Sequence record: NC_135728.1
Origin: a phage
Direction: 5' to 3' (one strand)
Length of the DNA stretch: 64,000 nt
Translations under genes and position numbers: made by a program
In this document: piece by piece, positions 45,264 through 64,000 of the stretch
Layout of the letters: the number at the start of each line of letters is the position of its first letter
Numbering within the stretch: the first letter of the stretch is position 1
The notes under the pieces: model-generated
Database searches by the model: none
What the model was told of the DNA's origin: nothing
Seen by the model: the letters and a program-made list of their open reading frames with translations, nothing else

Positions 45264-45291
45264 GGGAGGCTTGCGCCTCCCTTTTCCTTTT
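45264..45291 (+). terminator. rho-independent terminator
   Basis: gggaggcttgcgcctccc hairpin followed by TTTTCCTTTT. Confidence 0.6.
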
Positions 45292-45300
45292 GGAGGCACT

Positions 45301-46119
45301 TTGAGCAAGAAAGAGTCCAACGACAAATATTACACAAACCCTGAGTATGCAGAATATCTTGTTGGTAAAGTAAAAGACAAGTATGGGAATTGTGCATACG
45401 TTGAGCCTTCTGCTGGAAGGGGTTCTTTTTCAAAACTATTTTCAAAGATACTGTCGTACGATCTAGTACCAGATCCTGAATTTGAAGGACCAACACAGTG
45501 CATTCAGGCAAACTTCTTGGAGGTGCATCCTAAGGCAGATGTCTTCATAGGTAACCCACCATTTGGCAAGAATTCATCTTTAGCTTGCAAATTCTTTAAC
45601 CATTGTGCATCATTGCTAGAGCTTGGCGGGGCTATAGCCTTCATCTTGCCACGGACATTTGAAAAAATATTTTTTGCAAACAAACTGGACATGTCTATGC
45701 ACCTTGTCTACAGCGAAAGGTGCCCTAAGAACTCGTTTTTACTTAATGGCAAACCTTACGACGTGCCATGTGTTTTCCAAATTTGGGAGAAAAAGGCGTG
45801 CAATAGGGATCCTGTAGAGATTGGAGAGAATAAGTTATTTTCTTTTAGCACTCCGGATGACTACGACTTCTGTGTAAGACGTGTTGGGTATAATGCTGGA
45901 AAAGTATTGGGGGATGATGACCCAAAATCTGAAGAATCGACATATTTCATAAAATCTTTAGTTGACGGTGTTGACAGAGTGTTTGCCGAATGCTATTCTT
46001 CTTTTCAAGAAGAAGCAGGTAAGACTGCTGGAATGAAGAGTATAGGCAAGAAAGAACTACAATACATTTTGGAGACCCGGTATGATCAAAAGCATAGACT
46101 TGACCAAAGAACTTACTGA
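45301..46119 (+). CDS. DNA N6-adenine (amino) methyltransferase; start uncertain (TTG at 45301 proposed; ORF-track ATG at 45271 lies inside the terminator hairpin)
   Basis: Motif I YVEPSAGRGSF and motif IV IGNPPFG. Confidence 0.65.
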   Translation: MSKKESNDKYYTNPEYAEYLVGKVKDKYGNCAYVEPSAGRGSFSKLFSKILSYDLVPDPEFEGPTQCIQANFLEVHPKADVFIGNPPFGKNSSLACKFFNHCASLLELGGAIAFILPRTFEKIFFANKLDMSMHLVYSERCPKNSFLLNGKPYDVPCVFQIWEKKACNRDPVEIGENKLFSFSTPDDYDFCVRRVGYNAGKVLGDDDPKSEESTYFIKSLVDGVDRVFAECYSSFQEEAGKTAGMKSIGKKELQYILETRYDQKHRLDQRTY

Positions 46120-53668: not shown

Positions 53669-55788
53669 AAGTTGTAAAACGGGACGGTAGAGAAGAGGTC
53701 TATAACGGAATTAAGGTGATCAAGGCGGCAGAGTCCGCCTTACTTGAGTCTGGACATACTGAAGAAGAAGCTTACCGGATCGCCTGCGCGGTTAATGAAG
53801 TTGTTGCTAACAATCTACCAACCGACCAGTGCACGATCTCTGTAAAAAATATCCATATCCTTGTTGAAGACGCTCTTATGGATATGGGTTTAAAATGTGC
53901 AGCCAGAGAATACATCCAGTATAGGCAGACAAGAGATAATAACAGAGAGGCAGGTGGAAAACTGCTTGCAGATATTAGTGGCTTCTTGGATCGCACTTGT
54001 GATGAATTTACAAAAGAAAACGCAAATAAGCCTACCAACCATGTACACACTCATCGTGACCTGCTTGCAGGCATCCTTAGCAAACACCTTGCATCAACAC
54101 AGATCCTGCCAGACCGTGTCTCCGAAGAGCACAATAAAGGCTTCATCCATGTGCATGATCTTGATTATTTGATCAGTCCGTTAACAAACTGTTGTTTGGT
54201 AAATTATCCAGATATGCTGGAAAACGGATTCAACATTGGTAACGCCCATGTCAGTAAGCCGAAGTCAATAGGGGTTGCAACAACAATCCTTAGCCAAATC
54301 TCTAGTGCGGTAGCTAGTGCTCAATATGGCGGTCAGACTATGAGCCATATTGATCATTATCTGGCACAGTATGCTGAAGCAACCTATGAGAAGAACCTTA
54401 AATTTTGCCAGGAACATTGGTTGCCAGATGCTGAGACTGTTGCAATGCAAATGACAGATAAAGACGTATTTGACAGCATGCAGACTTTGCTCTATCAAAT
54501 CAATACGTTAACTTCTGTCAACGGGCAAACTCCATTCATTACATTAAGTTTGGGTCTGGACACCTCAGTATTTGGTAGAATGATTACCAAAAACTACTTG
54601 AAAGTCCACAAAATGGGTCTTGGTGAAGAACGTATCACACCTGTGTTCCCTAAAGTGCTGTTCTTCCTAGAAGAGGGTGTCAACATGAACCCTGGAGATC
54701 CTAACTATGATTTGAAACGATTAGCTCTGGAATGCTCTGCAGAGCGGATTTATCCTGACTTTGTTTCTGTTCCACTAAATCGTAAAGTGACAGGCTCGAC
54801 AGATGGCAAAGTAACGAGCATGGGTTGCCGGAGTTTTCTTAGCAAATACAATGACTTGGAAACAGGTGAGGAGAAATACCTCGGCAGATTCAATTTGGGT
54901 GTTGTTAGTCTTAACCTACCAATGATTGCGGCAAAAGCTAAGACGGAAGGTGTTGATTTCTTTGCCGTTCTTGACGAATACCTGGATCTTGCATACGAGG
55001 CTCACCTTGTAAGGGTTAACCGTCTAAAAGGAACAAAGGCAGGGCAGAACCCTATCATGTGGTGTGAAGGTGCTCTTGCTCGCCTGGATCCTGAAGAGAG
55101 TATTGATAAACTCTTCTATGACGGGTACGCTTCCATCAGTATTGGGTATATTGGTGTGTATGAAACCTGTCAGATTTTGGGCAGGGAGGGTGACAAGGCT
55201 TTAGCTCTTGGAATACTTCAGCACATGAGAGATGCTTGCGAGCGATACAAGAAGGAAAGTAGACTAGCGTTTAGCTTGTACGGCACCCCTTCTGAGAGTC
55301 TATGCTATAAAGCTGCAACCTGTCTGGATCGTGAATATCCTGAAGTGTTGAAGCACGAGCATGAATATCTCACCAACAGTTTCCATCAGCCAGTGTGGAT
55401 CAATAGCTCTCCTTTTGATAAGTGGGAATATGAGGAAGGTTTTGCTATGATCTCCTCTGGTGGCAACATCGGGTACGTAGAGACACCAAATCTGAAAAAC
55501 AACTTAGATGCTTTAGAGGCTCTTGTTGACTTCGGGTATAAACACATTATGTATTTTGGTATTAACCAACCTGTGGATAAATGTCTCAAGTGTGGTTTCT
55601 CTGGTGAGTTCAGTGCAACAGCTAAAGGCTTTGTATGCCCAGAGTGTGGAAACCATGAAGAGGGAACGATCAGTGTGATCAGACGTGTATCCGGGTACCT
55701 GTCTAGTCCAAACTCCCGTCCTTACAATAAAGGTAAGCAAGCGGAAGTTATCGAGCGGGTTAAGCACTATGGAAGTTGTAGTTGCTGA
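53665..55788 (+). CDS. nrdD: anaerobic ribonucleotide reductase (class III)
   Basis: N-terminal ATP-cone, C-terminal glycyl-radical motif RRVSGYL, zinc site CPECG. Confidence 0.9.
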   Translation: MKVVKRDGREEVYNGIKVIKAAESALLESGHTEEEAYRIACAVNEVVANNLPTDQCTISVKNIHILVEDALMDMGLKCAAREYIQYRQTRDNNREAGGKLLADISGFLDRTCDEFTKENANKPTNHVHTHRDLLAGILSKHLASTQILPDRVSEEHNKGFIHVHDLDYLISPLTNCCLVNYPDMLENGFNIGNAHVSKPKSIGVATTILSQISSAVASAQYGGQTMSHIDHYLAQYAEATYEKNLKFCQEHWLPDAETVAMQMTDKDVFDSMQTLLYQINTLTSVNGQTPFITLSLGLDTSVFGRMITKNYLKVHKMGLGEERITPVFPKVLFFLEEGVNMNPGDPNYDLKRLALECSAERIYPDFVSVPLNRKVTGSTDGKVTSMGCRSFLSKYNDLETGEEKYLGRFNLGVVSLNLPMIAAKAKTEGVDFFAVLDEYLDLAYEAHLVRVNRLKGTKAGQNPIMWCEGALARLDPEESIDKLFYDGYASISIGYIGVYETCQILGREGDKALALGILQHMRDACERYKKESRLAFSLYGTPSESLCYKAATCLDREYPEVLKHEHEYLTNSFHQPVWINSSPFDKWEYEEGFAMISSGGNIGYVETPNLKNNLDALEALVDFGYKHIMYFGINQPVDKCLKCGFSGEFSATAKGFVCPECGNHEEGTISVIRRVSGYLSSPNSRPYNKGKQAEVIERVKHYGSCSC

Positions 55789-55791
55789 TAC

Positions 55792-55822
55792 TTGACAAAA
55801 GCCACAAGGATGTGGCATATTA
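55792..55822 (+). promoter_or_regulatory. sigma70-like promoter with palindromic spacer (CCACAAGGATGTGG)
   Basis: TTGACA (55792-55797), spacer palindrome, CATATT/ATATTA; followed by RBS GGAGG and ATG at 55852. Confidence 0.5.
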
Positions 55823-55851
55823 TTGACACACAGTGAGCTAGGAGGTACAGT

Positions 55852-55968
55852 ATGTCTAAAGGTATTTATAAAATTTGCAAGTGTGGTTGTCGTTGCAATC
55901 TTCGTTGGTGCAAGGCACTTGATGATTTTATTTGGCATTGCCCTGAATGCGATGCGGAGTACTTATAA
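55852..55968 (+). CDS. small cysteine-rich protein (38 aa), possible zinc ribbon
   Basis: Not in ORF track (short); ATG with strong RBS (GGAGGT, 7 nt); encodes MSKGIYKICKCGCRCNLRWCKALDDFIWHCPECDAEYL. Confidence 0.5.
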   Translation: MSKGIYKICKCGCRCNLRWCKALDDFIWHCPECDAEYL

Positions 55969-56119
55969 GCATAAGGGGTCGAAATGCGGAAATCTATCAA
56001 GAAAATCAAGATAAGATTGTTGGTACTGAAGCGTAAGTATAAAAAGTTATACGGCTTCATTAAATGGACTTTTATAGGTTTATCTTGAATAGAAGCACAC
56101 CACAGAAGAGAGGTTCCTT

Positions 56120-56356
56120 ATGATAGGTGTCTGTGTAAAAGCTAACAGATGGTTTACATTCGGTAAGGATTACGAAATTATCTTTCATTCGGACAGAGCC
56201 ACAACAGTAGAAAGCGATGATGGGTGCTACTGGTTCGTTAGTTACCATGGTGATGGGTATTATAGATCTACTGATTCCAGAGGGGAAGAAGCTGTTTTCT
56301 TAGATAGAGCTTATTGTGGGCCTGAATATCCCTACCTCAAAGAGGATAAGGAATGA
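56120..56356 (+). CDS. hypothetical protein (78 aa)
   Basis: ORF track; start-stop overlaps nrdG. Confidence 0.45.
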   Translation: MIGVCVKANRWFTFGKDYEIIFHSDRATTVESDDGCYWFVSYHGDGYYRSTDSRGEEAVFLDRAYCGPEYPYLKEDKE

Positions 56357-56826
56357 ATGTTGTTAATATTATAGAGTGTAGCATGGTTGACGGCCCAGGC
56401 ATTAGGACAACGGTGTTCTGTTCTGGTTGCCCACATCACTGTGTCGGTTGCCAAAACAAAAGTGTTTGGTCACCAGCTAAAGGTGAACCGTTAACAAATG
56501 ACACTATTGAGAGTATACTTCACTCTATAGAGCCGAAACATATTACTGGCGTTACATTATGCGGTGGCGAACCTTTAGCGCCTTACAATATCGATGGTAT
56601 GTACTCGATCATTCGCGCTATCCGTGAACGCTTCGGCAACACAAAAACTATCTGGGTGTACACAGGGTATTTGTTTGAAGAGGTTCCCGATCACATTAAA
56701 GATAGTGTCGATTACATTATGGATGGTAAGTACGAAAAAGATAACCCTACCAAAAAAACCTTCAGAGGTAGTGATAACCAAAGAATGTTTAAAAAGGTAG
56801 CAGGCGGTTGGGTTCAGGTTGACTAA
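56353..56826 (+). CDS. nrdG: anaerobic ribonucleotide reductase activating protein (radical SAM)
   Basis: N-terminal CSGCPHHCVGC cysteine cluster; follows nrdD. Confidence 0.85.
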   Translation: MNVVNIIECSMVDGPGIRTTVFCSGCPHHCVGCQNKSVWSPAKGEPLTNDTIESILHSIEPKHITGVTLCGGEPLAPYNIDGMYSIIRAIRERFGNTKTIWVYTGYLFEEVPDHIKDSVDYIMDGKYEKDNPTKKTFRGSDNQRMFKKVAGGWVQVD

Positions 56827-56829
56827 TTG

Positions 56830-56859
56830 TTGACAAAGCTTTGTTAAGTTGGTTATAAT
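56830..56859 (+). promoter_or_regulatory. sigma70-like promoter
   Basis: TTGACA (56830-56835), 17-18 bp spacer, TTATAAT; followed by RBS GAGGAGG and ATG at 56883. Confidence 0.6.
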
Positions 56860-56882
56860 TAGGAAAGCAGAGGAGGTGCCAA

Positions 56883-56996
56883 ATGGCTAAAAAAGCCTTG
56901 AAGAAGGCGTACAAAAAAGAAATTGCGCTTGAGCTTAAGAAAAAACACAAGCGTGAAAAGAAACATCATGAGGATGAAGAGGGGGTGCAACAGTGA
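56883..56996 (+). CDS. small highly basic protein (37 aa)
   Basis: Not in ORF track (short); strong promoter and RBS upstream; MAKKALKKAYKKEIALELKKKHKREKKHHEDEEGVQQ. Confidence 0.45.
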   Translation: MAKKALKKAYKKEIALELKKKHKREKKHHEDEEGVQQ

Positions 56997-57343
56997 CACA
57001 AGAACGTATCGATTTGGCTAATAAGTTTGTAGATCTCATTTTGCCACGGTTAGTTACTCAACATGCAGACGCTATTTCTACTAATCTTGATGGCTTACGC
57101 CTAATGCTGAATCGCACAGATGACCCTCGTATTCGGGCTGATTTAGAAGCCTCTGCCAACAAACTGGAAAAGTTCTTGCAAGTAGACACGCAAGAAGCCT
57201 TACACAAGATTATGGTGGAAGGTTTCTCTAAAGAATTTACCATTAAAGAGCTTAAGGAGCTGATCCACCAAGAAGAGATGAATATCCGAGTTCAGGCTGT
57301 TGCAAGCAGCATGGAAGCGGCTATTGAAAAACTGTTGCAGTAA
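56993..57343 (+). CDS. hypothetical protein (116 aa)
   Basis: ORF track (GTG start overlapping upstream stop). Confidence 0.45.
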   Translation: MTQERIDLANKFVDLILPRLVTQHADAISTNLDGLRLMLNRTDDPRIRADLEASANKLEKFLQVDTQEALHKIMVEGFSKEFTIKELKELIHQEEMNIRVQAVASSMEAAIEKLLQ

Positions 57344-57381
57344 AAGTACTTGACACATCTCAATCTGAAAGGAGTCCCAAC

Positions 57382-58170
57382 ATGGGTCGAGCTAAAGAAA
57401 CAAAACGCATGCGTGATGAAGCTAGAGAGGCTCGCAAATCTGATCGCCTGCGTAAGGCTGCTGAGAAATTTGCTGACGAACGAGAGCACACAGCTCCAGC
57501 TCTCCGACCAATGAATAAAAAGCAGCAAAAGTATCTTGATTATCTAGGGTCACGTAAGATTATTATTGTAAACGGTGTGTTTGGATCCGGTAAGACATTC
57601 ATGGCATCTGCATATGCAGGTGATCTTCTGCGTAAGAACGAGATTGATAAGATCATTGTTGCACGTCCTTACGTTCAGACAGGAAAGACTTCAGGATTTA
57701 AACCTGGAAATGCAATGCAGAAACTGTGGCCCTATCTTAGAAGCATGATGGACACGATTTGTCGTCGTGTTGGCAAAGGTGCTTTTGCCGCAATGCTGGG
57801 AGACGGTCAGAACAGCCGTATCGAGATTTGTGAGGTTGAAAGCATTCGTGGTCGTAGTTTCGATGAGCGATGCTTTGTCCTGATTGACGAGGCACAGCAA
57901 ACTAACCCTGAAGAAATGTTGTCAATTATCACAAGGATCTCTGATCAGGCCACTCTTGTAATTATGGGAGATAATAGTCAACGTGACATCCCTGGTAAAT
58001 CTGGCCTTGCATGGGTGACAGATTTCTTTACTCGTCATCCAGATCCTGAGGTTGGAATGATCAGCTTTGATAGTCCAGACGATGTCGTTCGTTCCGGGTT
58101 GGGTCGTCAGATTGCACTCAATCTTATTGAGGATCGTGCAAATCATATTTGGACCCCTGTTTCCGAGTAA
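57382..58170 (+). CDS. phoH: PhoH-like ATPase
   Basis: Walker A GVFGSGKTF and Walker B-like FVLIDEAQ in PhoH arrangement. Confidence 0.8.
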   Translation: MGRAKETKRMRDEAREARKSDRLRKAAEKFADEREHTAPALRPMNKKQQKYLDYLGSRKIIIVNGVFGSGKTFMASAYAGDLLRKNEIDKIIVARPYVQTGKTSGFKPGNAMQKLWPYLRSMMDTICRRVGKGAFAAMLGDGQNSRIEICEVESIRGRSFDERCFVLIDEAQQTNPEEMLSIITRISDQATLVIMGDNSQRDIPGKSGLAWVTDFFTRHPDPEVGMISFDSPDDVVRSGLGRQIALNLIEDRANHIWTPVSE

Positions 58171-58214
58171 CACAGAAGGGTGGTTATTCCACCCTTAGAT
58201 ATCTAAAACAGTTG

Positions 58215-58243
58215 TTGACAAATAGGTAAGCTTTAGATATTAT
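58215..58243 (+). promoter_or_regulatory. sigma70-like promoter
   Basis: TTGACA (58215-58220), 17-bp spacer, TATTAT (58238-58243); RBS AGGAGAAGGAG before ATG 58269. Confidence 0.6.
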
Positions 58244-58268
58244 TATCGGACAAGGAGAAGGAGATAGT

Positions 58269-58580
58269 ATGGCTACAGTACAAGAGAAACTGAATAAAAT
58301 ATACTGCCTGTTTGTCTATAACGGCGAGACAATTCTGGCATATAAAGGATCCAAGAATGTATGGATCAAGGACAGTGGTGGTAATATAATCAACTTAGCG
58401 TTGCTACGTGAGCGCCGACACAGATTCTTTATCGAGTCTCGGATTATTGAAAGCAGCACCTGCTACAGAACAGGCGATAAAGTAATTGTTGACAATGATA
58501 CGTGGTATGTGGTAGACTGGCAATCATTGAGCTGTGATGCTTCTGACAATCGTAAGTATTCTATAGTGATTGCTAAATAA
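58269..58580 (+). CDS. hypothetical protein (103 aa)
   Basis: ORF track with promoter and RBS. Confidence 0.5.
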   Translation: MATVQEKLNKIYCLFVYNGETILAYKGSKNVWIKDSGGNIINLALLRERRHRFFIESRIIESSTCYRTGDKVIVDNDTWYVVDWQSLSCDASDNRKYSIVIAK

Positions 58581-58639
58581 AGGTAAATGTGAATCAGGTT
58601 TAATAAATAGCTTTCAACTTCCAATATTAAGGATTTCTC

Positions 58640-59689
58640 ATGAATTTAACACCTCGCAGCACCATGGTACACGGCATGAAAGAAAAACAGAACGGTTTCG
58701 AACCTATGAGTAATAAAATGTTTGGTATGCCAGGTGGTATTATGGAAACATACAGCTACCCAACACCAGTTGTTGACCACGTTCTTTATATCGACGATTT
58801 GGAAGACTTACAAGATCATATGTCTCGTCTACAGACGATCCGTATGGCTCAGCCGGAAGAAAGCATTCGGGTGATCATCAATAGCCCTGGGGGTTGCGTG
58901 CACATTGCAATGGCTTATCTGCAGGCATTCCGTGAGTCTCAGGCAAGCGTTGTTGCACATGCTGAAGGGATGTGCTGCTCTGCGGGAACAATCTTATGGC
59001 TGGGTTGCAAAGAGCGCACTGTTGCTCCGGACACAGAGTTTATGTTCCACTACTACCAAGGTGGCACCTATGGTAACGGTGTGAACATGAATACCCAGAT
59101 CAACTACTGGAAGAAACGTTTTGAACGCCTGATCGAAAAATACTACGGTGGGGTGTTAACAGAAGATGAGATCGCATCCATCACAGCTGGCGGTGAAGTG
59201 TGGTTAGATGGAGAAGAGCTGGCATCTAGAACTGGTGCTATCATTCTGGACGATGAAAACATTCAGCGCATTCAGAATGGACAGAAACCGAAAAAGCTTT
59301 TGGCAAAAAGTGATGAAGAAGGTGTGCTAGGCGAAGCAGGCCTGCCAGAGATTCACCAATGCACATCTCTGGACGAGCTGGTTCATGCTGTTGAGTCTGC
59401 AAAAGCAAATGGTATGAAAGATGATGTTCACACTGTGTTCCTGAATCTGCAGATGGAAAGTGGCGAGACAGTCAGGATCGCCCTGGGTGAAATTACTTCA
59501 GAAGATCTGCAGCGATTCTCTGTCGTCGAACTTCAGGATATTCTGTCTCAATTGAAGACTACTCTGAACGGCGGTGAAGAGGTTAAGGTGAAAGACAAGA
59601 CCCGCAAGCGTCTGATGGACAATATCATTAAAACAGCAAAAGAGCTCAATGAAAAAATCCTGGGTTCAGGAATTGTCGAAGAAGCTTAA
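58640..59689 (+). CDS. ClpP-like serine peptidase with acidic C-terminal extension
   Basis: ClpP-type motifs INSPGG and GMCCSAGT (Ser nucleophile context). Confidence 0.55.
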   Translation: MNLTPRSTMVHGMKEKQNGFEPMSNKMFGMPGGIMETYSYPTPVVDHVLYIDDLEDLQDHMSRLQTIRMAQPEESIRVIINSPGGCVHIAMAYLQAFRESQASVVAHAEGMCCSAGTILWLGCKERTVAPDTEFMFHYYQGGTYGNGVNMNTQINYWKKRFERLIEKYYGGVLTEDEIASITAGGEVWLDGEELASRTGAIILDDENIQRIQNGQKPKKLLAKSDEEGVLGEAGLPEIHQCTSLDELVHAVESAKANGMKDDVHTVFLNLQMESGETVRIALGEITSEDLQRFSVVELQDILSQLKTTLNGGEEVKVKDKTRKRLMDNIIKTAKELNEKILGSGIVEEA

Positions 59690-59700
59690 ACATTAATTCT

Positions 59701-59727
59701 AAAGCCCTCTTCGGAGGGCTTTTATGA
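59701..59727 (+). terminator. rho-independent terminator
   Basis: aaagccctcttcggagggcttt hairpin with UUCG loop followed by T-run. Confidence 0.6.
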
Positions 59728-59740
59728 TCTGGAGATTTGC

Positions 59741-60274
59741 ATGACTTGTGCTAGAAAACCTGATGAACAACGTAACGCATACGATGAGTATGTGACACCG
59801 GAGTGGTGTGCAGAAGGGCTGTATGACCTTATTCCGTTCCCAGAGGACTGGACCTACTTAGAGCCTTGCAGGAATAGTGCCTCAGGTGTGTTCTACTCCC
59901 GTATGCCGTTAGGATCTGCATGGGGAGAAATCCAAGAAGGTGTTGACTATCTGAATACAGAATACAACCATGTTGACTGTATTATCACCAACCCACCATA
60001 CAGTCTGGCCCGTGAGTTTGTAGACAAGGCGTTGAAAGATGCTGACGTAGTTATTATGCTTTTGCGTCTTAATTTTCTGGAAAGCAAAGCCAGATTTGAA
60101 TGGTGGCTTGATAATGCACCTACCACTGTGATCACAATATCTAAGCGTCCATCATTTCAATCAAATGGTAGAACTGACGGGCAAGCATATGCATATTTTG
60201 TGTGGGATAAGAAAAACCGTTTAGACTTGCCGCCATTTATGTGGTTGGCACCCCCAGAGGTAGACCTGAAATGA
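59741..60274 (+). CDS. DNA methyltransferase (amino-methyltransferase, NPPY motif)
   Basis: IITNPPYS catalytic motif; second methyltransferase in the window. Confidence 0.55.
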   Translation: MTCARKPDEQRNAYDEYVTPEWCAEGLYDLIPFPEDWTYLEPCRNSASGVFYSRMPLGSAWGEIQEGVDYLNTEYNHVDCIITNPPYSLAREFVDKALKDADVVIMLLRLNFLESKARFEWWLDNAPTTVITISKRPSFQSNGRTDGQAYAYFVWDKKNRLDLPPFMWLAPPEVDLK

Positions 60275-60555
60275 AAATGAGTGCTAAGGACAAATTACAC
60301 CAACTGGCGCTAAAACGTCCTGTAACGCTTCCTGACGAGCTTAACTCTATTTATGATGCGATTGTAGGGGAGATACAAAATAAAGCGTTAGCAGGCTTTC
60401 TGGGATGCGGATTTTCGATAAATCTACCCTCGCATCTCTCAGATTACTTCCCGCATATTGTTGGGGATTTGAGGGCAGGAGGTCTGCAGGTAGATGTTGT
60501 TGGCATCTCTCCAGAGAAAAATAACACGGTTGCCTACTTGACAGTAACTTGGTAG
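60271..60555 (+). CDS. hypothetical protein (start adjusted to ATGA overlap with upstream stop)
   Basis: ORF track 60241-60555; internal Met at 60271 overlaps the methyltransferase stop. Confidence 0.4.
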   Translation: MKMSAKDKLHQLALKRPVTLPDELNSIYDAIVGEIQNKALAGFLGCGFSINLPSHLSDYFPHIVGDLRAGGLQVDVVGISPEKNNTVAYLTVTW

Positions 60556-60566
60556 TTGTGTATTGT
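60538..60566 (+). promoter_or_regulatory. sigma70-like promoter
   Basis: TTGACA (60538-60543), 17-bp spacer, TATTGT. Confidence 0.45.
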
Positions 60567-60829
60567 TGTTATCAACAAGGGGGTCATTTATGTACAAGTC
60601 ATTTTCAATTTACTCAAGACAGGCGAAACATTACACAGAGATTCTAATCACTCAGAAAAAATCTGTAGAAGGTGAGTGGGAATATCATCATAAAATGTTG
60701 CGTCCAGACTGGGTTTTTGATAGGCTTATTGCTATGATCCCTCTTGGAGAAGTATACCCTCTGACAGGTCATAGGGATGCTTGGGATTTAATTGATTACA
60801 TAGATTCATTTAAGGAGCCTAGTGTATGA
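60563..60829 (+). CDS. hypothetical protein (88 aa)
   Basis: ORF track. Confidence 0.4.
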   Translation: MLLSTRGSFMYKSFSIYSRQAKHYTEILITQKKSVEGEWEYHHKMLRPDWVFDRLIAMIPLGEVYPLTGHRDAWDLIDYIDSFKEPSV

Positions 60830-61224
60830 AGATTGAGATCACTAAAGAAGGTAAGAAAGTGTCTGGCGATTATGCAACAGTAATTCGGGATGTAATGTTC
60901 GAAGTAACCCAGACTGGTACGTCTAAGGTTGGTCAAACGGTAAGTGTGCAAGGTAATATTGCCGCAGGTGAAAAGATAATCATCGTGATCAAAGGACAAG
61001 ACCCTGTGGAAGGAACAGTGGGCCGAGGAGGCTACCTGTGTATTTCTGAAGAACCTCGTATGCTGGTTGCTGATAACTCCACAGGTAAAAAGCGGGTATG
61101 TAACACGGACGAGGTGATGATTATCTATCCAGTCAACCCAGATGATCCGGCAACATGGATTGTGGGAAATGAAATCTTCTCTTTAGAAGAGTTATCCTTC
61201 CCAGCTCCGCGCTCTGTTCAGTAA
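60826..61224 (+). CDS. hypothetical protein (132 aa)
   Basis: ORF track; start-stop overlap. Confidence 0.45.
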   Translation: MKIEITKEGKKVSGDYATVIRDVMFEVTQTGTSKVGQTVSVQGNIAAGEKIIIVIKGQDPVEGTVGRGGYLCISEEPRMLVADNSTGKKRVCNTDEVMIIYPVNPDDPATWIVGNEIFSLEELSFPAPRSVQ

Positions 61225-61263
61225 TAATTTATCTTACCAGGGACGGTAGAAGTAGGAGGTAGC

Positions 61264-61497
61264 ATGAAAGTTAAATTTCTTACAGATTTAGGGTACCCTT
61301 CCTTGGTTGACTGTGTTGGTAAAATTGTGGAAGCAAAACGGCTATCTGCAAACGAGAATGTTGTCATGGTTAAGGGAAAAGATTTATTAGCTGCAGGTGC
61401 AGAGTCTGGCAGGGTCTCTCCTGACTATACGTATTACCTGTCTTTAAGTAATCTACCAGAACGAGGCGGCAAAGGCCTTGAAGTTGTGGAGGAGTGA
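61264..61497 (+). CDS. hypothetical protein (77 aa)
   Basis: ORF track; RBS AGGAGG. Confidence 0.45.
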   Translation: MKVKFLTDLGYPSLVDCVGKIVEAKRLSANENVVMVKGKDLLAAGAESGRVSPDYTYYLSLSNLPERGGKGLEVVEE

Positions 61498-62027
61498 CAG
61501 GTATGCTTCTGATTAACTGGGAAGACCTCTATGGGGACAAAGACCCTGTTGCGTTTGTTGATCGTAGATGGAGATATACTGAAGAACAACTGGCTGCAAA
61601 AAATTTAACTGCAAAACGCAGAAAGATCATCCAGTGCAAGTATAAATACGCACAGTTTGCTGCAAAAGTGTCTCCCCAAATCGAGAGCTTTGTGCTTAAA
61701 TTGTATGACGAGTACCTCAAATTCAAACTGGATTTTGTACAGGTATACCGTGCACAGATACGCCCAGATACCAGCATTTGTAGATGGAAGGTTGTTTGTG
61801 ACGGTAAAGATTTGCCACTCAGCTTGACAATTGAGCAGCGTTGGGGGTATCATGAGTGCGGTCTGTATGAGACTTGGGATGTCATTGTAGATCCTGCTAA
61901 GTACCTGAACACAGAGGAGCTGGAATATATCAATAAGGTTATTCTCGATATGTTTTTCAGATACACCTGTGAAAACTCTGAGAAAGAACGGGATAATTTT
62001 CTTGACACCATCAGCAACCATCTGTAG
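61494..62027 (+). CDS. hypothetical protein (177 aa)
   Basis: ORF track. Confidence 0.45.
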   Translation: MTGMLLINWEDLYGDKDPVAFVDRRWRYTEEQLAAKNLTAKRRKIIQCKYKYAQFAAKVSPQIESFVLKLYDEYLKFKLDFVQVYRAQIRPDTSICRWKVVCDGKDLPLSLTIEQRWGYHECGLYETWDVIVDPAKYLNTEELEYINKVILDMFFRYTCENSEKERDNFLDTISNHL

Positions 62028-62057
62028 TATACAATTTAACCTACAAAGGGAGGGCTA

Positions 62058-62294
62058 ATGAGTATAAATGTTGTGCTAATAGGTTACCTGGTAATAGCAG
62101 TTATAACAGCGGTATTCTTGACAGGTATATGCATCGTGTCTAGACGAAGGGTGAAGTTTGATGATTTTATCACCATCATCACTGCTGCACCTTTTTGGCC
62201 TATTGTTATCTTCATCGTAATAATGTGCCTAGTTGATTACTACAAGAATATCCGTAAGGAGAAAAAGGAGAGTAGGGATGGAGACCGCGCCTAA
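62058..62294 (+). CDS. small membrane protein with two predicted transmembrane segments (holin candidate)
   Basis: Two hydrophobic stretches (VVLIGYLVIAVITAVFLTGICIV and ITIITAAPFWPIVIFIVIMCLV) and charged C-terminus. Confidence 0.4.
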   Translation: MSINVVLIGYLVIAVITAVFLTGICIVSRRRVKFDDFITIITAAPFWPIVIFIVIMCLVDYYKNIRKEKKESRDGDRA

Positions 62295-62430
62295 AACTGT
62301 TTATACTGTTCTTAAAGAGATTGCGTTCTACGCAGATCTTAGCCAGGCACCTTTATGGGAAAAGAGCATGTATTTAAAATGGTGCGTTAATTTATGGAGA
62401 CCTTCCAGTGTTTCAAGCCATGTTTATTGA
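62278..62430 (+). CDS. hypothetical small protein (50 aa)
   Basis: Internal Met of ORF 62233-62430 preceded by strong RBS (AAGGAGAGTAGGG). Confidence 0.3.
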   Translation: METAPKTVYTVLKEIAFYADLSQAPLWEKSMYLKWCVNLWRPSSVSSHVY

Positions 62431-62513
62431 GATGCTATCTGGGGTATTGTTACTGGTAGCCATCTTAGGTGGTGCAGTTCTGATGTATAACTATCTTGAA
62501 AAAGGAGACAGCA

Positions 62514-62699
62514 ATGGCAAAAAATAAATCTTTAGAGCAGGCTGAAAACCTTCTCCACGAGCTAGTAAAGGAGTGGAAAGTTGAATACTCAGATTTTAAT
62601 GCACGAGAGGGTGAAGATTATTGGCCTACGGAGCGCTCAGAGGGCGAATGGTATCAAGATTTTATAGAGTGGTTATATCAGACGTGTGATGAGGGGTGA
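62514..62699 (+). CDS. hypothetical protein (61 aa; start at second Met with RBS)
   Basis: ORF track 62496-62699; AAGGAGA RBS precedes the ATG at 62514. Confidence 0.4.
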   Translation: MAKNKSLEQAENLLHELVKEWKVEYSDFNAREGEDYWPTERSEGEWYQDFIEWLYQTCDEG

Positions 62700-63157
62700 C
62701 GATGTTTGTTAAATATGTAAAAACGTGCCTCAACAGTCTTGGCAGAGAGCATTGGTACACCTTACTTGAAAAAGGAGAAATTTTAACAAAATCTGGAAAG
62801 ATAACTTTGATACCCTTGGACGATAAAGACCCGTCACTCCTTGTCATAGATGATTACGTTACAGGTGTGTCGTACGAGGTCTCTGTGGAGAGGTTAATAC
62901 GCAGATCTGGAGGTCCTTATGACCGAAGAGAGTATGTTTTCGATTCTGTTACAGAGAAGGAAGATCCGTCTCTAATGTTCAGGATGGTAATCAGAGATAT
63001 GAGGTCATCTATAGACAGGATCGTAAAGGACATTAAGGAGCCTTTTAGGGTAAAAGTTAAGAAGTTTTTTGATTCTAAGATTAACATACTTGCCGTTGTG
63101 CTAGGCGTAATTCAACTTCTGTTAATTTTGCACTATCTTGAACTGTTGTTTAAGTAG
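62696..63157 (+). CDS. hypothetical protein (153 aa), C-terminal hydrophobic segment
   Basis: ORF track. Confidence 0.45.
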   Translation: MTMFVKYVKTCLNSLGREHWYTLLEKGEILTKSGKITLIPLDDKDPSLLVIDDYVTGVSYEVSVERLIRRSGGPYDRREYVFDSVTEKEDPSLMFRMVIRDMRSSIDRIVKDIKEPFRVKVKKFFDSKINILAVVLGVIQLLLILHYLELLFK

Positions 63158-63217
63158 TGTGCAATAAGGCACAAAGGATGTGCCATAACTAAATAAACTA
63201 AGAAAGAGGTAGAGAGA

Positions 63218-63565
63218 ATGCCAAAGATTAAATCGATATTAATGTGGGTAGCTGTTGTGGCTTTTGTAGGATACTGGACTTGGGAAACTGAATTAAAAGA
63301 TATCGGATATACCAGTCTTGAGAACAAGGCGTGCATTGGCATAACCGATGCATTCAGGCAAAATGCTATGGATCACGAATGTGTCGATGCAGACATAGAT
63401 GAGAAACTGTCTAAGGACAAAGACTTCTACCACGGGTATGCTTTGCTTGATAGTGGAGACACTGTAGAGTTCTGGTCGTGGTTCCGTAAAGATGGAACAA
63501 TAAAAACAGCAGTAAAGATCTCTAACAAAGAGTTAATGCTGTTGCAGCAGAAGGAGGCTCAATGA
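63218..63565 (+). CDS. hypothetical protein (115 aa) with N-terminal transmembrane/signal-anchor segment
   Basis: ORF track; hydrophobic N-terminus ILMWVAVVAFVGYW. Confidence 0.45.
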   Translation: MPKIKSILMWVAVVAFVGYWTWETELKDIGYTSLENKACIGITDAFRQNAMDHECVDADIDEKLSKDKDFYHGYALLDSGDTVEFWSWFRKDGTIKTAVKISNKELMLLQQKEAQ

Positions 63566-63849
63566 TCTGGATATCCTATGCTGATGGCACCATGCTGTAT
63601 ACTGCAGGTACCAGATATGAGGTTCAGGAGAACGATAAAAAATTTATCGTAAGAACATTTGACAAGGACGACAACCTTTTGCTAGAATTAACTTACAAGG
63701 TTGGGGATGTATCTAGCATCCAGTTGGATTGCGGTCATAAAGATAACCCACTCAAGAAACCTGGGGTAGGTAAAGCTTCAGAAAAACGCCTGTCTCGTAT
63801 TGCAGAAAGCGTTTCTGCACAAAAATCTAAGAAGGGGACTAGAAAATGA
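63562..63849 (+). CDS. hypothetical protein (95 aa)
   Basis: ORF track. Confidence 0.4.
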   Translation: MIWISYADGTMLYTAGTRYEVQENDKKFIVRTFDKDDNLLLELTYKVGDVSSIQLDCGHKDNPLKKPGVGKASEKRLSRIAESVSAQKSKKGTRK

Positions 63850-64000
63850 AAAACTTACGTTTTAACACTTATTACTACAACACATTGAATGATTTGTATT
63901 ATATTGTTCGAAGTAAAAGTCCTGAAACAGTCCTATTCTGCCGCGAACCTTTCAAAGGGGAGGAAGTAGAGTCTGAGATGAATGTTAGCCATATTACCTC
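63846..64000 (+). CDS. hypothetical protein, 5' part only (runs off window end)
   Basis: ATG at 63846 overlapping the upstream stop; open frame to the window end. Confidence 0.3.
   Translation, partial: MKNLRFNTYYYNTLNDLYYIVRSKSPETVLFCREPFKGEEVESEMNVSHIT

Follow-up and report, generated by a model that had tools for sequence, protein, structure and literature searches.

What a phage protein of 177 residues with an NPPY motif might methylate is not evident from the motif, which is found in HemK and TrmN6 too. Such a protein is encoded at 59741..60274 on the + strand of the 64,000-nucleotide stretch of phage DNA analyzed here (sequence record NC_135728.1), to which we refer, in its whole length, as the window. 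The listing of open reading frames (ORFs) gives it an ATG start, and the codons ACC AAC CCA CCA TAC at 59987-60001 read T83-N-P-P-Y87. The position of the gene, directly after a ClpP-like protease gene (58640..59689, + strand; PF00574 at 1.4e-12), agrees with a preliminary description of this sequence, which had proposed an NPPY-type DNA methyltransferase there. We consider it highly probable that the ORF encodes an orphan phage N6-adenine DNA methyltransferase that depends on S-adenosylmethionine (AdoMet) and acts on the adenine of GATC, a minimal single-domain enzyme of the gamma type. The ORF, its membership in phrog_799 and its orthology to a phage gene of known activity, bas51_0176, all point to this coding sequence being a methyltransferase of GATC (Dam-type) specificity.

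The evidence that carries this reading comes from a sister phage, Escherichia phage WalterGehring (Bas51, MZ501111.1, matched through locus tags). Its gene bas51_0176 is the same gene at the same position, likewise directly after a ClpP-like gene, and its product is identical to the window protein in 176 of 177 residues; the sole change, V174A, sits in the low-confidence C-terminal tail of the structural model described below. The corresponding region of Bas51 contains two genes named 'N6 adenine methyltransferase', but D69, D79 and T83 are present only in bas51_0176 (bas51_0200 carries Q, A and I at these positions), which hence identifies bas51_0176 as the published trigger of two retron defence systems. 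Nakamura et al. (PLoS Biol 2025; PMC12548924) reported the Bas51 N6 adenine methyltransferase as the trigger of Retron-Asa1 and Retron-Squ1: all eight of the eight Bas51 escapees of these retrons were mutated in the methyltransferase gene, and each of the engineered substitutions D69G, D79G and T83P was enough to end defence by both systems. In the same work, the gene alone led to retron-dependent growth inhibition in Serratia quinivorans, and E. coli suffered from its overexpression whether or not a retron was there (PMC12548924). By alignment to M.TaqI, the escape substitutions fall on motif III, on strand beta-4 and on the residue that precedes NPPY, which implies that the catalytic activity of the protein, and not its presence, sets off the retrons.

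The specificity of the orthologue follows from native nanopore sequencing of Bas51, in which the N6-methyladenine (m6A) logo is a clean GATC and is nearly lost in the T83P mutant (PMC12548924). According to the source data of that study, the methylated adenines of the wild type are distributed as 1405 in GATC, 509 in GTAC and 576 in other contexts, and those of T83P as 35, 511 and 349, respectively (PMC12548924). We assembled the Bas51 genome from four stretches in order to count its sites and found 703 GATC sites (1406 adenines) and 258 GTAC sites (516 adenines); 99.9% of GATC adenines are thus methylated in the wild type versus 2.5% in T83P, and about 99% of GTAC adenines in both. The 2.5% retained by T83P implies that host Dam adds almost nothing to phage DNA, and the constancy of the GTAC calls means that this second methylation stems from another enzyme. 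An orthologue that differs in a single residue is therefore required for GATC m6A on phage DNA, and the preliminary assignment to the DNA methyltransferases is borne out. GATC dependence, retron triggering and overexpression toxicity have all been demonstrated on the Bas51 orthologue, so that the function was already established on a near-identical protein and the finding is already known. By analogy, the window enzyme would act on essentially every GATC of the replicating phage genome, with the same specificity as host Dam.

The sequence of the protein is in keeping with this activity. A search of the PDB with the single sequence yielded nothing meaningful (an antibody light chain and adenylate kinases headed the list, with E ~1), and a family profile built from 32 sequences (alignment A1) found M.TaqI as its best PDB match, with E = 1.7e-5 and a span from motif X to motif IV. 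The alignment covers M.TaqI residues 22-110 in the motif order X-I-II-III-IV that defines the gamma class, and it places Y-x-T19-P20 in register with T23-P24, E41-P42 with E45-P46, E63 with E71, D69 with D89 and N84-PPY87 with N105-PPY108. On the + strand of the window, motif X (Y17-V-T19-P20, 59789..59800) aligns to E22-T-P-P of M.TaqI and contains the invariant T19. Motif I, the AdoMet loop L40-E-P-C-R-N-S-A-S-G49 (59858..59887), aligns to LEPACAHG; with respect to the family consensus LEPCxGxG, it has Ala in place of the first Gly and a two-residue insertion, and M.TaqI also has Ala at that first Gly position. Motifs II-III are represented by E63 and D69 (59927..59947), and the catalytic motif IV lies, together with strand beta-4, in D79-C-I-I-T83-N-P-P-Y87 (59975..60001), so that D69G falls in the former segment and D79G and T83P in the latter. 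A motif VIII-like segment, R136-P-S-F139 (60146..60157), was assigned a putative role from alignment A1 and the modelled secondary structure, in which it opens the beta6-beta7 loop (residues 134-149). The family-invariant positions in A1 are T19, T83, N84, P85, P86, L107, R109, R118, R136, F139, D146, Y150 and W155.

The AlphaFold model accounts for all 177 residues as a reduced Rossmann-type core, with a mean confidence (predicted local distance difference test, pLDDT) of 87.6 that drops to 58 in the last block and a predicted template modelling (pTM) score of 0.85. No target-recognition domain is present in the model, the protein stopping some 20 residues past the last core strand, and the absence of a separate recognition domain anticipated from sequence thus holds in the predicted structure. 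The protein is a stripped-down class I methyltransferase of the gamma type, with the motif order X-I-II-III-IV-VIII and closest to M.TaqI; the gamma-class DNA adenine methylases are its nearest structural relatives. It shares the motifs X-I-II-III-IV (NPPY), with residues in register, not only with M.TaqI but with the gamma class at large (Eco57I-type PF07669, type I M subunits, BseCI and CamA), whose DNA methyltransferases match the fold of the model at template modelling (TM) scores of 0.54-0.63; these enzymes, however, recognise their targets through a large domain, C-terminal or separate, or through a subunit, for which the 177-residue protein has no counterpart. Foldseek searches of the PDB retrieved both DNA adenine methylases (type I M subunits, CamA, BseCI, PacII) and Dim1/KsgA enzymes at TM 0.5-0.63. 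Taken by themselves, structure and profiles leave DNA and RNA adenine methyltransferases undivided, and it is the experiment on the orthologue that divides them.

Curated family models contribute little more than a tendency. All Pfam and NCBIfam matches of the protein fall under their curated cut-offs: PF13651 EcoRI_methylase scores 20.1 against 26.4, the small phage Dam family PF05869 19.2 bits against 28.1, PF07669 Eco57I 13.3 against 25.3, TIGR01712 'phage N-6-adenine-methyltransferase' 16.1 against 97.05 and HemK TIGR00536 12.2 bits against 115.5. The protein has no match to PF02384 (N6_Mtase), to the TrmN6 models of NCBIfam or to PF00398 (KsgA/Dim1/Erm). Across the 32 family members, the weak Pfam matches lean towards DNA adenine methylases, with EcoRI_methylase in 13/32, Dam (PF05869) in 8/32, Eco57I in 7/32 and RrnaAD in 1/32. 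A profile search had been named beforehand as the check that could move the protein to an RNA or protein methyltransferase family, and no such assignment emerged from it.

A mode of action may be sketched from the M.TaqI alignment and from general knowledge of the fold. AdoMet would be held by E41-P42...G49, E63 and D69, and the flipped target adenine would enter the N84-P-P-Y87 pocket and be stacked by F139. In a protein that lacks a target-recognition domain, the task of reading GATC would fall to core loops, the beta6-beta7 loop (residues 134-149) together with the invariant R109, R118 and R136 being the most plausible choice. This loop is the only candidate recognition element of the model, with a presumed part in base stacking and recognition, and dimerisation on the palindromic GATC is possible. 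Incidentally to its main action, the activity of the enzyme triggers both retrons, Asa1 and Squ1; the authors of the retron study propose that triggering proceeds via methylation of a GATC in the reverse-transcribed DNA (RT-DNA) of the retron (PMC12548924). As to the benefit for the phage, our guess is that fast-replicating DNA missed by host Dam would escape treatment as unmethylated GATC DNA, the enzyme shielding under-methylated replicating DNA from methylation-sensitive GATC nucleases such as restriction enzymes, from MutH, or from both.

Several observations weigh against this reading of the protein as a GATC-specific DNA enzyme. The assignment comes from in vivo genetics and from nanopore base calls at a 60% threshold, and the experiments were made on Bas51 and not on the phage of the window. 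Methylated adenines in the 'other' category also fall in T83P, from 576 to 349, which may reflect either off-target activity or a bleed of the base-caller signal in the neighbourhood of GATC. None of the Pfam or NCBIfam matches reaches its curated cut-off, the first ranks of the Foldseek search are taken by archaeal Dim1/KsgA rRNA methyltransferases (TM 0.5-0.6), and ErmAM and ErmC' match the family profile at 3e-5 to 9e-5, close to the score of M.TaqI, the ErmC' match spanning residues 11-153. Moreover, how GATC is recognised and what the phage gains from it are both matters of inference. Finally, the Vequintavirinae have no visible protection from the six restriction systems of the BASEL panel (BASEL study).

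The alternative that fares best leaves the chemistry untouched and concerns its purpose. Methylation could serve a housekeeping or regulatory role instead of an anti-restriction one, either by averting MutH-dependent nicking and breakage at unmethylated GATC on rapidly replicated phage DNA or by setting the time of transcription or of packaging, a function that Dam has in phage P1. We take this to be a serious contender, though not the likelier account of the role. It finds support in the lag of host Dam, which brings only 2.5% of GATC adenines past the threshold in T83P phage grown on E. coli, and in the fact that GATC is not avoided in the window, where its 351 sites amount to one per 182 bp and to a Markov observed/expected ratio of 1.01. 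The absence of protection from the restriction systems tested in BASEL points in the same direction, as does the finding that methyltransferase mutants still form plaques, with titres of 1-4e10 versus 5-6e10 for the wild type, a small but significant drop (PMC12548924). On the other hand, a search of the window for clusters of GATC that might mark a pac- or origin-like site revealed none above chance (a maximum of 6 per 250 bp over 256 scanning windows).

A second alternative, which we deem unlikely, is that of an adenine methyltransferase of relaxed specificity that prefers GATC but also modifies near-cognate or single-stranded sites, thereby explaining both its toxicity and its action on RT-DNA. 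M.EcoGII and Hia5, non-specific adenine methylases derived from phages, provide precedents for relaxed specificity. The lack of a target-recognition domain would suit such an enzyme, and so would its toxicity upon overexpression in retron-free E. coli, where GATC is already methylated by Dam, and the decrease in T83P of methylated adenines outside GATC and GTAC. Nonetheless, overproduction of Dam is itself harmful in E. coli, and the toxicity therefore needs no off-target activity; the decrease in other calls could be an artefact of the base caller near GATC, and the methylated-site logo of the wild type is a clean GATC. Among the systems of the BASEL panel are reportedly EcoRI and EcoRV, which adenine methylation inside their sites blocks in either case, and these phages stay highly sensitive to its restriction systems, so that, on the panel as reported, bulk non-specific methylation is excluded. 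A non-specific adenine methylase as the main activity was accordingly rejected on the grounds of the clean logo and of restriction sensitivity. To our knowledge, none of the restriction systems of the panel has GATC in its site. The Vequintavirinae have been described as 'exceptionally susceptible' to these systems (BASEL study), and this susceptibility fits a modification of GATC only.

The weakest alternative, an RNA adenine methyltransferase (KsgA/Dim1/Erm-like on rRNA or TrmN6-like on tRNA) or a HemK-like protein glutamine methyltransferase with a shared NPPY core, can draw on Pyrococcus DIMT1 and other Dim1/KsgA enzymes as the top Foldseek matches (E = 2.5e-5), on the Erm profile matches and on the naming of an identical protein as TrmN6 in one GenBank record and of a Vibrio phage homologue as 'dimethyladenosin transferase', yet it is extremely improbable in the face of a substitution beside the catalytic motif that strips GATC m6A from phage DNA, of HemK and RrnaAD models that stay below threshold, of a Y-x-T-P motif X and an E-P motif I that align with M.TaqI, and of a 177-residue, all-core protein without the C-terminal RNA-binding domain of KsgA and Erm.

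With the GATC-specific DNA methyltransferase as the preferred reading, the comparison with known Dam enzymes becomes of interest. The small phage Dam families PF05869 and TIGR01712 (profiles of ~165-170 positions) are of similar size, phage-borne and endowed with an NPPY-type motif IV, and members such as the Dam proteins of phages T1 and HP1 methylate GATC. The C-terminal half of PF05869 is co-linear with the window protein (residues 69-143 against profile positions 51-127), but the N-terminal half of the latter differs from both families in having an AdoMet loop of the E-P-x-x-G-x-G type and a Y-x-T-P motif, as in M.TaqI. The alpha-class enzymes E. coli Dam and T4 Dam (PF02086) make, by the orthologue data, the same product, m6A in GATC; they have another motif order, a dedicated DNA-binding domain and ~260-280 residues. 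A relationship to them could not be traced, with no match to PF02086 and no alpha-class Dam among the PDB profile matches up to E = 10 or among the top 50 Foldseek matches. To the KsgA/Dim1/Erm enzymes (PF00398), similarity is confined to the core fold and its profile. A bolder proposition is that the family embodies an origin of Dam specificity separate from that of the alpha class, in which GATC is read by a stripped-down core, possibly through core loops or a dimer, with activity on single-stranded or hairpin DNA. We put this forward only tentatively and regard it as doubtful; if true, such activity would explain both the triggering of retrons and the toxicity.

The distribution of the gene is broad. 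The window derives from an rV5-like Vequintavirus: most of its last 9 kb can be aligned to some 110 rV5-like Escherichia phages (Vequintavirus) at 90-95% DNA identity, the nearest database relatives of the phage of the window standing at ~95%. The protein is encoded at 99-100% identity in 108 phage records, under labels that range from 'putative N6 adenine methyltransferase' and 'DNA methyltransferase' to 'hypothetical protein' and, once, 'TrmN6'. Under the name 'Campylobacter phage', nineteen records (MG0656xx, e.g. MG065635.1, MG065654.1 and MG065666.1) match positions 55000-64000 of the window by megablast, and those listed encode a 100% identical protein; they have the appearance of Vequintavirus genomes that were mislabelled or that came in as contaminants. 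Beyond these copies, the protein matches phrog_799 ('DNA methyltransferase') over residues 1-172 (E = 8.1e-67, 227 bits), as a full-length member, and has 312 homologues in a word-seeded search. A profile search of a 1.84-billion-protein library returned 1,672 clusters at 50% identity with E <= 1e-30, and 10,912 with E <= 1e-10. The records at 99% identity or above, the phrog_799 match and the 1,672 cluster representatives together establish that the ORF did not arise by chance, and the original observation is confirmed.

Family members are nearly all single-domain proteins of 160-220 residues. Many homologues at 60-66% identity are 219-227 residues long, instead of ~170 (P0004, P0012 and P0031, from Klebsiella, Cronobacter and Erwinia phage relatives), by virtue of an annotated charged, low-complexity C-terminal extension of ~55 residues that the window protein does not have. 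The few long family members (560, 448 and 357 residues) contain no informative extra Pfam domain that might hint at the substrate; in two of them the profile aligns at two places, a hint, as far as the sequences go, at tandem copies of the same core. Homologues are encoded among the DNA replication genes of phages (DnaB, primase, Pol A and ligase), and one relative has a DnaB helicase on one side and a primase-polymerase block on the other. No partner nuclease or specificity gene was found near the relatives surveyed, which exclude 80 bacterial loci and are flanked only by phage replication and structural genes.

The window encodes a further methyltransferase, 14.4 kb upstream of the 177-residue gene, at 45301..46119 on the + strand (alternative start at 45271; phrog_5172). 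This 272-residue protein, recovered as an NPP[FY] ORF, resembles the shorter enzyme in its gamma-type order (YYTNPE, EPSAGRG, GNPPF) and differs from it in ~150 extra C-terminal residues, which are likely to form a recognition domain. The preliminary description had called the two enzymes unrelated, and this is too strong. A pairwise BLASTP comparison is insignificant (E = 0.029), and the 177-residue protein matches phrog_5172 at 0.0016; the 272-residue protein, however, matches phrog_799 at 4.9e-13 over its residues 3-118, and this match, together with the shared motif order, makes the two remote homologues. The larger enzyme is not responsible for GATC methylation. The enzyme behind GTAC m6A could be either the 272-residue protein or bas51_0070, a third N6A/N4C methylase of Bas51 (441 residues, PF01555 at 4e-42) encoded outside the window; Bas51 also carries a Dcm-like gene outside the window, and with such further methylases at hand both proposals stay at the level of candidates. 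GTAC is the most depleted 4-bp palindrome of the window (117 sites, Markov observed/expected 0.56), and yet nearly all GTAC adenines are methylated in Bas51, independently of the 177-residue enzyme. Of the two protected motifs once postulated for the two methyltransferases, the motifs themselves stand, one gene-dependent (GATC) and the other untouched by T83P (GTAC); that either is protected is unproven, the Vequintavirinae being sensitive to restriction. The earlier interpretation is thus supported, with corrections to the words 'unrelated' and 'protected'.

For phage biology at large, these results add little that is new, given that 'putative adenine methylase' is already a common annotation of the gene and that its activity and its role as a retron trigger were published in 2025. 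A more exact annotation, 'GATC-specific (Dam-type) DNA adenine methyltransferase', can, on the other hand, be given to the ORF and to more than 100 identical copies, many of which bear the label 'hypothetical protein'. Few enzymes linked to a defined 4-bp specificity are as small as this one, which does without a recognition domain; its compactness makes it a candidate for structural studies or DamID-style tools. Genes of this kind are under-called in the annotation of phages and prophages, since no curated Pfam model reaches its threshold on them.

The immediate flanks of the gene, all on the + strand, are compact. A Shine-Dalgarno-like GGAG (59731..59734) lies 6 nt 5' of the ATG and presumably directs its translation. 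Between the ClpP-like and methyltransferase genes, a hairpin, AAAGCCCUC-UUCG-GAGGGCUUU, followed by U (59701..59723), is terminator-like and may act as such; folding of the + strand RNA gives it a centroid energy of -14.7 kcal/mol (z = -2.5 against shuffled sequences), and it was not among the hits of the consensus terminator scan. A promoter scan returned 8 matches, no excess over the 6.4 +/- 2.7 of shuffled sequence. A GATC site occurs at 59726..59729 (+), between the hairpin and the Shine-Dalgarno element and 12 nt 5' of the methyltransferase ATG; it may well be there by chance, at one GATC per 182 bp. The stop codon of the methyltransferase overlaps, as ATGA, the start of a 94-residue ORF (60271..60555, + strand; phrog_12158, function unknown) that is annotated in BASEL phages and has no Pfam match, an arrangement that suggests translational coupling of the two genes. 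The product of this ORF is no obligatory partner in retron triggering, because the cloned methyltransferase alone triggers the retron.

The upstream ClpP-like protease has 349 residues, with the Clp protease domain restricted to residues 59-168 and no Pfam match in its ~180 C-terminal residues. In phages of Klebsiella, Cronobacter, Erwinia and Salmonella, the homologue of the methyltransferase has an 'ATP-dependent protease' gene as its neighbour, and the neighbourhood of both genes is conserved in the Vequintavirinae and their relatives. No restriction endonuclease gene lies beside the methylase, whose neighbours are the protease and small proteins without Pfam matches. Five genes downstream of the methyltransferase, at 61503..62027 (+), the window carries the orthologue of bas51_0171 (phrog_13467, function unknown), whose product has no Pfam match. 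This Bas51 gene corresponds to the putative glycosidase that was reported as the second gene whose loss (R87*) permits escape from Retron-Asa1 (PMC12548924). A preprint on Zorya and Druantia and a paper on the Eco2 retron refer to Vequintavirinae and methyltransferases only in general terms. Elsewhere in Bas51, the anaerobic ribonucleotide reductase is annotated as split (a joined coding sequence) by the insertion of a homing endonuclease (L093, 12574-16311), and a second homing endonuclease gene adjoins the split reductase; the copy in phage CarlMeissner is uninterrupted (L001, 10879-12789).

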